DNA of 64,000 bases from Escherichia coli (GCF_044324785.1 NZ_CP172127.1); one strand, 5' to 3'; counted from the stretch's first letter, positions 54,965 to 61,235 are shown. A program made the numbers and translations. The notes: generated by a model not told the origin, from the sequence alone.

Positions 54965-55936
54965 TTACTTATCGATTTTGCTGATCAGATCCATCATTTT
55001 CAGTTTCGGATCGGTGGAAACCTTACGGACTTCCAGCTCAATACCGCGCGCATTCAGTTTCTTGAACGCCTCGATATCTTTTTCATCAACCGAAACCGCG
55101 TTATTCACCTGGGTTTTACCCTGACGGAATGCCATACCACCGACGTTAACAGAGGTGATTTTCACGCCGCCTTCAACGAGACGCTCTACATCTGTTGGGT
55201 TGGTAAATAACAGCATTACACGTTCGCCAGCATATTTCGGGTTGTTGTAGACGCGAATCATTTTGGCAACATCAACTACGTGTGCTGTTACGCCCGGAGG
55301 TGCAACCTGGGTGAGCAGTGTCTTACGAACGGTATCCGCAGCCACTTCATCACTAACAACAATAATACGGGAGACATTGGTTTCTTTGGTCCAGCGGGTG
55401 GCGACCTGACCGTGAATCAGACGGTCGTCGATACGCGCAAGGCCAATAACCATGTAGTCGTTTGGCCCCATTGGTTTTGCCGGAGTTGGAGCCGCTTTTG
55501 GTGCTGCGGCAGCGGGTGCTGGCGCAGCTTTTTCAACCGGTTTGGCTTTCAGTGCTTTCACGCCTTCACGGCCTGTTTCTACTGCCAGCGCAACCAGTTC
55601 ATCAAAGCTTGGGTCATCATCACGGGCCATTAACGTTTCCACGAGCATTGGAATGTTAACGCCTGCAATGACTTCATAATGCTCTTTGTCGACGACAATG
55701 CGGCTGGCAGCATTGAACGGGCTGCCTCCCCATGTATCAACGAGAAACAGCACGCCTTTAGTGGTGTCGAGTTTTGCCAACTGAGCGTTGTACTTTTCAA
55801 TCAGCGTTTCGGCATTTTCACCTGGAACGAAATCGATCCAGCCGACGTTTTCCTGCTCGCCTAACAGCATTTCTGCCGTTTTAAGCAACTGCTCTGCAGC
55901 CCAACCATGTGTGCCTATAACAATAGCAATGGTCAC
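54965..55936 (-). CDS. manX: PTS mannose-specific EIIAB component
   Basis: 323-aa ORF, GTG start preceded by AGGAGG; Ala/Pro-rich linker between IIA and IIB. Confidence 0.95.
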   Translation of the reverse strand: MTIAIVIGTHGWAAEQLLKTAEMLLGEQENVGWIDFVPGENAETLIEKYNAQLAKLDTTKGVLFLVDTWGGSPFNAASRIVVDKEHYEVIAGVNIPMLVETLMARDDDPSFDELVALAVETGREGVKALKAKPVEKAAPAPAAAAPKAAPTPAKPMGPNDYMVIGLARIDDRLIHGQVATRWTKETNVSRIIVVSDEVAADTVRKTLLTQVAPPGVTAHVVDVAKMIRVYNNPKYAGERVMLLFTNPTDVERLVEGGVKITSVNVGGMAFRQGKTQVNNAVSVDEKDIEAFKKLNARGIELEVRKVSTDPKLKMMDLISKIDK

Positions 55937-56054
55937 TTGCTACCTCCTTTATTATCGTTAACACCTCAACGTGCCAGATGTATTTTTGAATCGTCGTCCA
56001 CAATCGAATCGATTCAGATAAGGGCTACAACCAAAAACCCCTGCGTTTCGCGAT

Positions 56055-56075
56055 TTATTTTAGATATCGAAAAAA
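56055..56075 (-). promoter_or_regulatory. Candidate Mlc/NagC-type operator in manX promoter region
   Basis: TTATTT-tagatatcg-AAAAAA about 120 bp upstream of manX; resembles Mlc/NagC sites; not verified. Confidence 0.3.
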
Positions 56076-56398
56076 TTATTTTATGTGATGAAGATCCGTA
56101 ATTTAACTTTCGATTAGCAGAAATTTCGAAAGGTAAAATATCCTTGTCACATTCGTTTGCAAAGGAAGGTAAATCTTTGCCAAATCAGAGGCGTCTCTGA
56201 TATGTTTAACTCCCGTTTAACAACCATGGAGTATAGGGCAGTAGCCCGCAGTATGGATCGTCACCGACGTCATTTCAGCATCAGGCCTTTTAACGCCTGC
56301 CTTTCTGGCACTCTATGCCGCACCTTTCGTTTGCATTTTGTCGTTACGCCTGCATTATTTCTGGCGTCGAATAGCTATTCCTTAAGCAGGAGCTTGTC

Positions 56399-57955
56399 AT
56401 GGAATTCTTAATGGACCCCTCAATTTGGGCGGGGCTACTCACGCTTGTTGTTCTCGAAATTGTGCTGGGTATCGATAACCTGGTCTTCATCGCCATTCTT
56501 GCTGACAAACTGCCGCCAAAACAACGCGATAAAGCGCGTTTGCTGGGATTATCACTGGCGCTGATTATGCGTCTGGGGCTGCTGTCGCTGATTTCATGGA
56601 TGGTCACGCTGACCAAACCGCTATTTACCGTCATGGATTTCTCCTTCTCCGGACGTGACCTGATTATGTTGTTCGGGGGAATATTCTTGCTGTTCAAAGC
56701 AACAACCGAACTGCATGAACGGCTGGAAAACCGCGATCATGATTCCGGTCACGGTAAAGGCTACGCCAGTTTCTGGGTGGTCGTCACACAGATCGTCATC
56801 CTTGACGCCGTCTTCTCGTTGGATGCGGTAATTACGGCAGTAGGGATGGTTAACCATCTGCCAGTGATGATGGCGGCGGTAGTGATTGCGATGGCGGTTA
56901 TGCTGCTGGCATCGAAACCGCTGACGCGATTTGTTAACCAGCATCCAACGGTGGTGGTGCTCTGTCTGAGCTTCCTGTTAATGATTGGTCTGAGTCTGGT
57001 GGCAGAAGGTTTCGGTTTCCACATTCCGAAAGGTTACCTGTATGCCGCGATTGGCTTCTCGATCATCATCGAAGTGTTTAACCAGATTGCGCGTCGCAAC
57101 TTTATTCGTCACCAGTCGACTTTGCCGCTGCGAGCGCGTACTGCCGATGCCATCCTGCGTTTGATGGGCGGGAAACGTCAGGCCAATGTTCAGCACGATG
57201 CCGATAACCCGATGCCGATGCCGATCCCGGAAGGTGCATTTGCCGAAGAAGAACGTTACATGATTAACGGCGTACTCACGCTGGCGTCGCGTTCTCTGCG
57301 CGGGATCATGACGCCGCGCGGTGAAATAAGCTGGGTTGACGCTAATCTCGGGGTCGATGAAATCCGCGAGCAGCTGCTCTCCTCACCGCACAGCCTGTTC
57401 CCGGTATGTCGCGGTGAACTGGATGAAATCATCGGAATCGTACGTGCTAAAGAACTGCTGGTGGCGCTGGAAGAGGGCGTTGATGTGGCGGCGATTGCTT
57501 CGGCGTCTCCGGCGATTATCGTCCCTGAAACCCTCGATCCGATCAACCTGCTGGGCGTGCTGCGTCGTGCTCGCGGGAGCTTTGTTATCGTGACCAACGA
57601 GTTTGGTGTGGTACAAGGCTTGGTCACGCCGCTGGATGTGCTGGAAGCCATTGCGGGTGAATTCCCGGACGCTGACGAAACGCCGGAAATCATTACTGAT
57701 GGTGACGGCTGGCTGGTAAAAGGCGGTACAGATTTGCATGCCTTGCAGCAGGCGCTTGATGTTGAGCACCTTGCCGATGACGATGATATCGCGACGGTCG
57801 CGGGCCTCGTGATCTCGGCAAATGGTCACATTCCCCGTGTGGGCGATGTGATTGATGTAGGTCCACTGCATATCACCATCATTGAAGCCAATGATTATCG
57901 TGTTGATCTGGTTCGCATTGTTAAAGAGCAACCGGCGCACGATGAAGATGAGTAA
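56399..57955 (+). CDS. yoaE: TerC-family membrane protein with CBS and CorC domains
   Basis: 518-aa ORF recognised as YoaE. Confidence 0.92.
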
Positions 57956-57958
57956 GCG

Positions 57959-59557
57959 TTAACGTAACGGCATAACGGGCGTGATATGTCCATTATGCCG
58001 GGCGGGCGGCGGTTGGCTGCCCGCCAGCCATTTGGGAAAATCACGTAGCGGCATCGGCTGTGCGTACAAATACCCTTGCAAAATATGCACGCCATGACGG
58101 CGCAAATACTTCGCCTGTTCTTGCGTTTCCACGCCCTCCGCCACCAGTTCAATATTCAGTCTTTGCCCCAGCGCGATGATGATATCGGTCACCGTCGAGT
58201 TAACCGCGTCAGAACCTATAGCTGCGGTAAATGACTTATCAATTTTCAGCACGTCAGGACGTAATGTTTCAAGCCAGGAAAACGAGCTGTTGCCGGTGCC
58301 GAAGTCATCAATCGCCAGTTTGACGTTTTTACGATGCAGCTCGCGGGCAATCCGATAATCCACATCCAGTAAGGCATCGCGTTCGGTGATTTCGAGGATC
58401 AGTTGCTGAATCGGGTGAGCGCTAAACCAGTACTGATTGAGATCTTTTATCAGCACACCACGGCGAAAATGGCTGGGTGCGACGTTAATGCCAACATGAA
58501 ACTGACTACTCATAGGGAAAACATGGCGCTGACGAATGGTTTCTGCCATCACATAGCGGGTCAGTGGCACAATTAAATGATGTTCTTCCGCGATAGGAAT
58601 AAACACATCCGGTGAAATCCAGCCCTGACGCGGATTGTTCCAGCGCAGCAAAATCTCTACACCAATACATTGCTGGCTGCGCGCATTAAGCAAAGGCTGA
58701 CAGAACAATTCGAACTCATGTTGCGCCAGGCCCAGATTGATTTCACGGGAAAAACTCATCCGGTAAGCGGTCGCCAGCCAGGCGATATAGCCCACAAGTA
58801 AACTTAGAAGCACCGCCAGCGGTAATTGTGTTGGAAGATAGTGCCATGCCAGCGCCGTAGCCCCCGGACCATTAACGTTAATGGTAAAAGGAAAGCGTTG
58901 CGAAGAAACCTGATAGTTTTCATTGTCTTCAGGTTGCGGAAGGGTATCTACCAGCCCATTACCATAGAGCAAATGCCGATTGTCCACCGTCAGGCTGGCG
59001 CTACTGATTTGCGGCAGTTGTGGCTCAAGCAGCATTGCCGCCAGTAAGTCGATGTTAATCATCTCCATGACCCCAGCATTGCTACTGCCCGCTGCTGGCG
59101 TCCATTGAATCAAAACCGGACTGCCTTTAATCAGGGCACGGTCGATCGTCAGGCGTAAAAGTGGTTGCGGTGCAGGAAGTTCAGCCAGAATGTCCACGAC
59201 GGGCACATTGCGATAACCAAAAATGCTGGAGCAATAAAGTGTGCCGTCTTGCACCAGGCCAATGGATCGCACAGTTTGGAGTTTTGCCGCCTGTTTACGT
59301 AATGGCAAATGGGCGACAGAGCAGGGCAGACCAATTAGCGGAAGTAAGACTTCGCTACCTGCCTGTAGGGGAAGCAGTACTTTATCTAATTCCTCTACAG
59401 CGTGATTGGCGAATTGTACTACCCGTTGTTGATTTAAGTTACGCTGTGAAATAAATCGCACGCTCAGGGTCGAAGCGAGCGTAACGAGTGCGCAAATCGT
59501 ACAAACAATCATTCGATTACGGCGATAGGTTTTAATGATCCGTTGTGCTTTTTGCAT
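57959..59557 (-). CDS. pdeD: c-di-GMP phosphodiesterase (CSS-motif sensor + EAL domain)
   Basis: ORF 57959..59587 trimmed to ATG at 59557 (532 aa); EAL signature EVLLRW. Confidence 0.88.
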   Translation of the reverse strand: MQKAQRIIKTYRRNRMIVCTICALVTLASTLSVRFISQRNLNQQRVVQFANHAVEELDKVLLPLQAGSEVLLPLIGLPCSVAHLPLRKQAAKLQTVRSIGLVQDGTLYCSSIFGYRNVPVVDILAELPAPQPLLRLTIDRALIKGSPVLIQWTPAAGSSNAGVMEMINIDLLAAMLLEPQLPQISSASLTVDNRHLLYGNGLVDTLPQPEDNENYQVSSQRFPFTINVNGPGATALAWHYLPTQLPLAVLLSLLVGYIAWLATAYRMSFSREINLGLAQHEFELFCQPLLNARSQQCIGVEILLRWNNPRQGWISPDVFIPIAEEHHLIVPLTRYVMAETIRQRHVFPMSSQFHVGINVAPSHFRRGVLIKDLNQYWFSAHPIQQLILEITERDALLDVDYRIARELHRKNVKLAIDDFGTGNSSFSWLETLRPDVLKIDKSFTAAIGSDAVNSTVTDIIIALGQRLNIELVAEGVETQEQAKYLRRHGVHILQGYLYAQPMPLRDFPKWLAGSQPPPARHNGHITPVMPLR

Positions 59558-61052: not shown

Positions 61053-61235
61053 GATAATACTCCTGACAAGGTGACTGGACTTCCAGTAACGAACTAATAA
61101 CAGCGCATAGTGTAAGAGGGAACGCGGCGACTGGCTTAACTATTCACATGAATTAAACTAATCAAAAACCGCGATTTAACTAATATTGCGATGATTGTCT
61201 CAAGTAGTGTTTTGTAGATGTAAAGATAAGTATAG

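Follow-up and report, generated by a model that had tools for sequence, protein, structure and literature searches.

In Escherichia coli, manX of the mannose-transporter operon and yoaE, a gene for protection against magnesium, are read away from each other, and the locus raises the question of what controls the two from the short stretch that separates them, and of whether an open reading frame (ORF) that leaves this stretch and runs into yoaE belongs to that control or arose by chance. We analyzed a window of 64,000 nucleotides (the whole stretch of E. coli DNA examined; positions are counted from its first nucleotide), in which the ORF list and the sequence place the manX-yoaE gap at 55937-56398 (462 bp). 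These coordinates are exactly those of the original prediction, which had called the gap a divergent control region of manX and yoaE, and they agree with RefSeq, where an identical E. coli record has the genes annotated as manX, yoaL, and yoaE.

We consider it very probable that the region is the known back-to-back control of manXYZ (leftward) and yoaL-yoaE (rightward), in the full layered form described below. The locus is already known, and its central elements have all been published previously: the literature has shown the operators, CRP dependence, the Hfq and small RNA (sRNA) sites, CpxR and PhoP binding, synthesis of YoaL, and the drop in yoaE-lacZ when yoaL carries a stop codon. Our additions are modest and testable, namely, a reading of PhoP action as occlusion, an open frame that appears to be selected without conservation of its peptide, covarying hairpins, and a rut-like composition. 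As a textbook case of layered control, the locus combines four or five transcription factors, two Hfq-dependent sRNAs, and a leader ORF in 462 bp.

The region and its flanking genes

ManX matched the NCBIfam equivalog model NF011670 with 611.7 bits (cutoff, 400), and a manX orthologue lies directly downstream of the region; its start codon has been described as a "weak GTG start" (PMC5861419). On the plus strand, yoaE begins with an ATG at 56399 and encodes a protein with TerC plus CNNM/CorC domains (NCBIfam search), which is named MgpA in Salmonella (Salmonella MgpA paper). A 751-bp stretch around the gap is found at an identity of at least 99% in 5,422 of 5,426 complete E. coli genomes, and the gap itself is unchanged in 5,423 E. 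coli genomes. Wider conservation was read from an alignment of the manX-yoaE region from 78 Enterobacteriaceae (alignment A1), and the motif counts expected in the 64-kb window were obtained from Markov-1 simulations. A terminator scan of the region found none, and no terminator-like or pause element was identified in it. The features discussed below are collected in Table 1.

Table 1. Features of the manX-yoaE region, with positions in the 64-kb window and the basis of each assignment
Feature	Position	Strand	Basis
manX start codon GTG	55934-55936	-	ORF list; NCBIfam NF011670
manX 5' UTR, 115 nt, transcription start 56051	55937-56051	-	PMC3089445, PMC5861419, and numbering check
manX -10, TAAAAT	56057-56062	-	Hexamer identical in 78/78 species
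Promoter-proximal NagC/Mlc operator, -3 to -25, covers manX -10	56054-56076	.	Pattern, matrix, conservation
Distal NagC operator, -69 to -91 of manX	56120-56142	.	Published 'man distal' site, matrix
CRP site; core TGTGATGAAGATCCGT at 56084-56099, center -40.5	56081-56102	.	Sequence, conservation, position
Cra-like palindrome CGAATCGATTCA, +36 to +47 of manX transcript	56005-56016	.	1 mismatch to TGAAWCGWTTCA
manX Shine-Dalgarno GGAGG (55943-55947) and Hfq-binding AUAAUAAA (55948-55955)	55943-55955	-	Hfq footprint, conservation
SgrS pairing site (55900-55913) and DicF pairing site (55885-55902)	55885-55913	-	PMC5861419 numbering
CpxR box GCAAA-GGAAG-GTAAA, directly upstream of yoaL -35	56159-56173	+	1 mismatch to GTAAA-N5-GTAAA
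Predicted yoaL-yoaE promoter: -35 TTGCCA (56177-56182), 18-bp spacer, extended -10 TGaTATGTT (56198-56206)	56177-56206	+	
PhoP box TGTTTA-ACTCC-CGTTTA, overlaps -10 and inferred start	56203-56219	+	Consensus, conservation, footprint
SD-like (A/U)GGAG (56227-56231) and putative hairpin GGGC-AGUA-GCCC (56236-56247), upstream of yoaL AUG	56227-56247	+	Highly conserved
yoaL, 52 codons, stop TAA at 56409-56411, 13 nt inside yoaE	56253-56411	+	RefSeq WP_001327808.1
Predicted hairpins inside yoaL: 56256-56271, 56282-56299, 56307-56319, 56347-56366	56256-56366	+	RNAalifold, 40 leaders
Predicted hairpin around yoaE ribosome-binding site	56367-56402	+	Anti-SD UUCCU (56378-56382) pairs with SD AGGAG (56388-56392)

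NagC/Mlc operators and a CRP site at the manX promoter

The manX transcription start at 56051 is secure because the published base numbering fits the window at every named base: with +1 set at 56051, the bases given in PMC5861419 (A97-A103, U91-C95, C139-G152, and G150-C167) all agree. Measured from this published start, which yields a 5' UTR of 115 nt (PMC3089445, PMC5861419), the operator and the CRP site named in the original prediction fall at -3 to -25 and at a center of -40.5, respectively.

More specifically, the 64-kb window has a single copy of the predicted Mlc/NagC-type pattern TTATTT-N9-AAAAAA, located over the manX -10 (56055-56075), with 0.03 copies expected. Using a NagC matrix made from nine published operators with the man site left out, we found that the proximal operator (56054-56076) scored 12.0 bits and ranked 7th of 63,978 window positions, and that it exceeded the window's 99.9th percentile in 77 of the 78 Enterobacteriaceae. 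The motif scan thus bore out the operator that had been noted, and its top-scoring site, 56120-56142, was one that the original prediction had not included. This distal operator (15.7 bits with a matrix lacking this site) matches the published 'man distal' NagC site GATATTTTACCTTTCGAAATTTC exactly when reverse-complemented and lies above threshold in 63 of the 78 species. The motifs at the manX promoter exceed chance. Elsewhere in the window, the second-best matrix score (15.1 bits) was found at 59433-59455, inside the 5' coding part of pdeD, and the third-best (13.8 bits) at 61135-61157, in the sdaA-nudL intergenic stretch upstream of sdaA.

The TGTGA half-site that had been placed at about 56083, as a possible part of a CRP site, was found at 56084-56088, where it forms the good half of a site at class II distance. 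The left half of the core is perfect and the right half carries 3 mismatches to the consensus, and a CRP consensus scan allowing up to 2 mismatches does not recover the site at 56084-56099. We retained it on position and conservation (the 16-mer is identical in 63 of the 78 species), not on score. Plumbridge reportedly placed the manX CRP site at -40.5. Repression of manXYZ by Mlc and its activation by CRP are attributed to Plumbridge 1998 by papers that cite that work.

In the account that we propose, manX is transcribed from 56051 by a CRP-dependent promoter with CRP centered at -40.5; NagC and Mlc shut this promoter from the 23-bp operator over the -10, and NagC additionally occupies the second operator, at -80.

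A Cra-like palindrome and an Hfq/sRNA layer in the manX leader

Like the distal NagC operator, a Cra-like palindrome and the Hfq/sRNA layer on manX had been absent from the original prediction. A search of the region with the Cra pattern RSTGAAWCSNTHHW, allowing up to 1 mismatch, returned no match and was uninformative in the window (16 matches versus 13.4 expected); the palindromic form TGAAWCGWTTCA (TGAAWC|GWTTCA) was used in its place, and this has 4 matches in the window versus 1.07 expected. The copy in the manX leader stays within 1 mismatch in 67 of the 78 species, and positions 56004-56025 are among the best-conserved blocks of alignment A1. In Salmonella (2023), deletion of cra raises manXYZ mRNA, a Cra box has been predicted, and Cra-His6 shifts a 331-bp manX promoter fragment. 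The palindrome at 56005-56016 is likely the seat of this reported repression, judging from its sequence and conservation.

A second copy of TGAATCG (55987-55993) lies 12 bp from the palindrome (56005-56017), and in the minimum-energy fold of the manX mRNA UGAAUCG (56017-56011) pairs with CGAUUCA (55993-55987). Both arms are conserved, and the intervening loop varies in length and sequence. Since the arms do not covary, their conservation could reflect either Cra binding to the DNA or pairing in the RNA, and the two reasons are inseparable. The folding energy of the manX leader was no better than that of shuffled sequences (z = +0.24). In Citrobacter amalonaticus S646, the manX 5' UTR carries an insertion of ~120 bp (about columns 353-470 of alignment A1) that separates the region of the ribosome-binding site from the Cra-like block.

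At the end of the leader, the published Hfq footprint covers A97-A103 with the motif AUAAUAAA (PMC5861419), and across 55939-55955 the majority base is found in 80 to 100% of the 78 species. The sRNAs SgrS and DicF pair with C139-G152 and G150-C167, respectively, counted from the start site (PMC5861419); both sites lie inside the first manX codons, outside 55937-56398, and are part of manX control. Hfq on AUAAUAAA, beside the manX ribosome-binding site, blocks translation when SgrS or DicF pairs just inside the coding region.

CpxR and PhoP boxes at the predicted yoaL-yoaE promoter

On the yoaE side, the original prediction had named neither a promoter nor the CpxR and PhoP boxes. Here, of the promoter-like sites on the plus strand, TTGCCA-18-TGaTATGTT alone is conserved, and TGnTATGTT is kept in 75 of the 78 species; from this consensus match and its conservation we infer that yoaL-yoaE transcription starts near 56212-56215. 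The CpxR half-sites are kept in 77 of the 78 species, with a spacer that varies. At the equivalent place in Salmonella, CpxR-P gave the footprint GCAAAGAGATGT, and CpxR activates yoaE in that organism. CpxR-P would likewise activate the extended -10 promoter here, from the GCAAA-N5-GTAAA box that abuts the -35. In the window as a whole, GTAAA-N5-GTAAA with up to 1 mismatch was counted 13 times versus 3.6 expected.

The PhoP box differs at one position from the direct repeat (T/G)GTTTA-N5-(T/G)GTTTA, and 65 of the 78 species have it with no more than 1 mismatch and a variable spacer. In Shigella, PhoP-P shifted and footprinted a sequence identical to 56203-56219. The Shigella paper gives this footprint as -107 to -83 of yoaE and relists the same site, reverse-complemented, as a 'manX' PhoP site; counted from the yoaE ATG at 56399, the listed sequence falls at -196 to -180.

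The Shigella expression data are given in Table 4 of that paper as "Expression ratio (mutant/WT)," with values of 7.14 (array) and 3.18 (qRT-PCR) for yoaE in phoPQ; from these ratios, yoaE is higher without PhoPQ. A later Salmonella CpxR paper describes yoaE as 'upregulated by PhoP,' a statement that is at odds with the primary table and is not supported. In S. Enteritidis, yoaE was among the candidates for EMSA, and those reported as shifted were only ompF and acnA. According to the Salmonella MgpA paper, mgpA'-'lacZ was higher at 10 mM than at 0 to 0.05 mM Mg2+, at neutral or alkaline pH. Because the box covers the -10, the arrangement suggests that PhoP-P represses the yoaL-yoaE promoter by occupying the -10 and the start, which would fit both the mutant/WT data and the induction of mgpA'-'lacZ at 10 mM Mg2+.

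The box might instead activate a second, PhoP-dependent promoter with a start near 56244, in which case yoaE would be induced at low Mg2+. Its direct-repeat form and orientation are of the activator type, PhoP boxes usually replace a -35, TATAGG/GAGTAT is conserved 9 to 12 bp downstream of it, and yoaE is classed as PhoP-activated by the later paper and by a regulon list. We nevertheless regard activation as quite unlikely, given the primary ratios of 7.14 and 3.18 and a reporter that is expressed more at 10 mM than at 0 to 0.05 mM Mg2+; moreover, transcripts begun near 56244 would have just ~9 nt ahead of the yoaL AUG and would lack part of a conserved hairpin. At the sole promoter-like site, it is the conserved extended -10 that the box overlaps, and the expression data point to repression. 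With repression by occlusion as the preferred reading, the assembled map offers a testable account of the rise of yoaE/mgpA at high Mg2+ and alkaline pH.

The ORF entering yoaE is the leader gene yoaL

The original prediction also held that an ORF at 56157-56411 runs into yoaE in a different frame and is probably not coding. The ORF exists, with 84 aa, a TTG start, and an end 13 nt inside yoaE in another frame. As for its coding status, the prediction holds for the 5' third (56157-56252), which lies over the yoaL promoter, and fails for 56253-56411: this 3' part of the 84-codon ORF is yoaL, a RefSeq CDS. YoaL has been detected as a tagged protein, under an earlier annotation of 69 aa from the ATG at 56202. 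According to Weaver et al. 2019, ribosome profiling shifted the yoaL start downstream, and replacing that start with a stop "strongly decreased" yoaE-lacZ. The Salmonella MgpA paper refers to YoaL as a leader peptide and calls its regulation unclear.

Sequence comparison gave the same answer. An ATG followed by MD(R/P)HRR stands at the aligned position in all 78 species, the length of yoaL ranges from 40 to 55 codons with every difference a multiple of 3, and its stop falls 13 nt into yoaE in 76 of the 78. Of 76 distinct leaders, 74 have no stop in the yoaL frame; the other two frames are open in 15 and 0. A purely noncoding divergent control region, with a chance ORF running into yoaE, would accord with the promoter, CpxR box, and PhoP box being covered by the 5' third of the ORF, with a TTG start that is not conserved, and with an NCBIfam search that found no YoaL model. 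For 56253-56411, however, such a reading is already refuted by the tagging, the lacZ experiments, and the conservation of the frame, and as an explanation of the region we find it hardly credible: yoaL is annotated, its protein is detected, a stop codon strongly lowers yoaE-lacZ, and the frame stays open across length differences that are multiples of 3 in 78 of 78 species. The practical lesson for genome scans is not to discard ORFs that cross out of frame into a neighboring gene, since the one found here is a functional leader gene.

Upstream in-frame ATGs at 56202-56204 and 56226-56228 are not conserved outside Escherichia, and other genera have TCAGGAG where Escherichia has CCATGGAG. The first of these ATGs yields the 69-aa form annotated earlier, and the second a possible 61-aa form. 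The Weaver preprint puts the old start 13 codons upstream of the likely one; we counted 17 codons from the ATG at 56202 and 9 from that at 56226. The 'yoaL' of PMC11429745 is a misprint of YoaI.

Conservation was also compared by codon position. Codons 8 to 38 of yoaL scored 0.65/0.69/0.68 at the three positions, with no periodicity, compared with 0.95/0.96/0.63 for yoaE and 0.96/0.98/0.79 for manX. Codons 1 to 7 (MDRHRR plus H/Q/L) scored 1.0/0.99/0.83, the periodicity of a selected peptide. From the open frame and the absence of periodicity in codons 8 to 38, this comparison therefore indicates that translation of yoaL is selected and that most of the peptide is not.

YoaL might nonetheless matter as a protein acting in trans (e.g., on YoaE or another membrane protein), not merely by being translated. 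Tagged YoaL accumulates to a level visible on a blot, and the periodicity of the first seven codons is what a selected peptide would give. We think such a role improbable, in view of the missing periodicity in codons 8 to 38 and a length that ranges from 40 to 55 codons; overlap with the yoaE SD and start accounts for the conserved C terminus, and in codons 3 and 5 the synonymous bases that never vary pair with each other in a stem (U56261-A56267). A ligand-sensing arrest peptide of the SpeFL kind (HRRH versus HIRRxxH) was also rejected: the likeness is one of three residues at the extreme N terminus, in an ORF of 40 to 55 codons. We thus prefer the reading in which being translated is what matters about yoaL.

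Conserved hairpins are predicted throughout the yoaL-yoaE leader

Structure was predicted with RNAalifold on 40 distinct gap-free leaders. When all 77 leaders were aligned with MAFFT and folded with RNAalifold, a single hairpin was recovered, since indels throw the variable middle out of register. Just upstream of the yoaL AUG, all cells of the 56236-56247 hairpin pair in 77 sequences, with pairs that are almost invariant, and the hairpin would shorten the 21-nt spacing between the SD-like sequence and the AUG to 9 nt. At the other end of the leader, the outer stem of the 56367-56402 hairpin reaches the yoaE AUG (56399-56401), and its SD/anti-SD pairs hold in 31 to 40 of the 40 gap-free leaders.

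Across 78 sequences, 85.8% of cells were paired, compared with 31 to 46% when the partners were slid by 1 to 3 columns, and 119 cells were double-changed, compared with 35 to 65 in the slid controls, both counts being scored on the sequences from which the structure itself was derived. In the 56347-56366 hairpin, 5 of 6 pairs carry compensatory changes (e.g., U-A in 26 and C-G in 20). A structure drawn earlier by eye gave the same picture. The hairpins at 56236-56247 and 56256-56271 never vary, and their constancy is no proof of pairing. The case for leader structure is a comparative one because the fold of the E. coli yoaL leader is no better than that of shuffled sequences (z = -0.26).

Within 56259-56269, none of 77 sequences differs at the 4-fold degenerate third base of Arg3 (CGT) or of Arg5 (CGA, a rare codon). 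The U56261-A56267 pair lies in a mini-hairpin, CGUC-ACC-GACG, and the synonymous sites in its loop and flank vary. Two long-range helices proposed by alifold (56213-17/56410-14 and 56227-32/56404-09) were given no weight; they are rich in G-U pairs and join blocks that are conserved for other reasons.

How translation of yoaL could promote yoaE expression

The yoaL-yoaE transcript encodes yoaL first, and ribosomes translating yoaL are needed for expression of yoaE. The most likely reason is that these ribosomes melt the conserved hairpin in which the yoaE SD and AUG are paired; they would terminate 13 nt past the yoaE AUG. The layout is that of translational coupling: the ORF overlaps the yoaE start and is open across species without conservation of its peptide, and the SD and AUG are sequestered in a predicted hairpin within yoaL.

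A further possibility is that ribosomes on yoaL keep Rho off a C-rich stretch. In corA/corL and mgtA/mgtL of Salmonella, translation of the leader prevents Rho-dependent termination, and preventing such termination could likewise be the main role of yoaL translation, rather than unmasking the yoaE ribosome-binding site. This is a live alternative because the central part of yoaL is rich in C and poor in G (C, 0.30; G, 0.19). The best 78-nt segment of the leader has 33 to 35% C and 17 to 18% G, C exceeds G in all 77 orthologues, and the published yoaL-stop experiment does not separate polarity from coupling. Set against this are a leader packed with conserved hairpins, which disfavor Rho loading, a scan that identified no terminator-like or pause element, and the classical coupling layout itself, in which a conserved hairpin holds the yoaE SD and AUG and the yoaE start is overlapped by the stop of yoaL. 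We regard Rho protection as a possible but doubtful main role and retain unmasking of the yoaE start as the preferred mechanism.

In this mechanism, PhoP would leave the -10 at high Mg2+, CpxR would activate, and translation of yoaL would open the yoaE start. Going a step further, we tentatively suggest, with more doubt than conviction, that the yoaL-yoaE leader is a structured cis-regulatory unit that sets MgpA/YoaE levels in response to Mg2+/cations and pH, together with PhoP occlusion and CpxR. Its parts may be the invariant MDRHRR start, the four covarying hairpins, the C-rich rut-like body, and the masked yoaE ribosome-binding site. If true, this would answer the question that the Salmonella MgpA paper left open, and it would place yoaE among the rare genes that PhoP represses, with a leader working in the opposite sense to those of mgtA and corA.

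Comparison with known systems

The manX side is the same locus as that described for E. coli K-12 manXYZ (Plumbridge & Kolb 1991; Plumbridge 1998), with the 'man distal' site present and the proximal operator and CRP over the promoter. The 115-nt leader, GTG start, Hfq motif, and sRNA sites agree base for base with the published manX leader (Rice & Vanderpool 2011; Azam & Vanderpool 2018). We see no difference from classical manXYZ in sequence logic; the Cra-like leader palindrome lies outside the classical description. The nagE-nagBACD locus is likewise divergent, with two 23-bp NagC operators flanking a CRP site, one of them over the promoter. Unlike at nagE-nagBACD, the operator centers here are 66 bp apart, Mlc is the main repressor, and yoaL-yoaE, the partner, is not an amino-sugar gene and receives inputs of its own from CpxR and PhoP.

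YoaE shares a TerC-type N-terminal domain with the products of the yybP-ykoY Mn2+ riboswitch genes (alx, mntP, and ykoY), its matches to the 'R_switched_YkoY/YjbE' models lying below the curated cutoffs, and yoaE responds to alkaline pH as alx does. A yybP-ykoY riboswitch in the yoaE leader was ruled out by an Rfam scan of 55700-56700 at E values up to 10, which gave no match to yybP-ykoY (RF00080), to a riboswitch, or to a known sRNA and returned only three chance, unrelated matches.

Closer parallels are found among the leader ORFs of Weaver et al. 2019 (pssL-pssA, baxL-baxA, and argL-argF) and in translational coupling, where a small ORF ends inside the next gene in another frame. As in those cases, blocked translation of yoaL lowers yoaE, and the yoaE SD lies in a predicted hairpin inside the upstream ORF. 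Unlike those leaders, yoaL is long (40 to 55 codons) and has a conserved six-residue N terminus and four covarying hairpins.

The Mg2+-transporter leaders of Salmonella mgtA/mgtL, corA/corL, and mgtCBR/mgtM-mgtP likewise carry short ORFs. By analogy, the yoaE leader seems to resemble them in preceding a cation-homeostasis gene, in its translated short ORF, in a structured, C-rich, Rho-compatible leader, and in its PhoP/Mg2+ link. It has no evident proline or Mg2+-sensing element, and it differs from them in direction, in that PhoP appears to repress yoaE and expression rises at high Mg2+.
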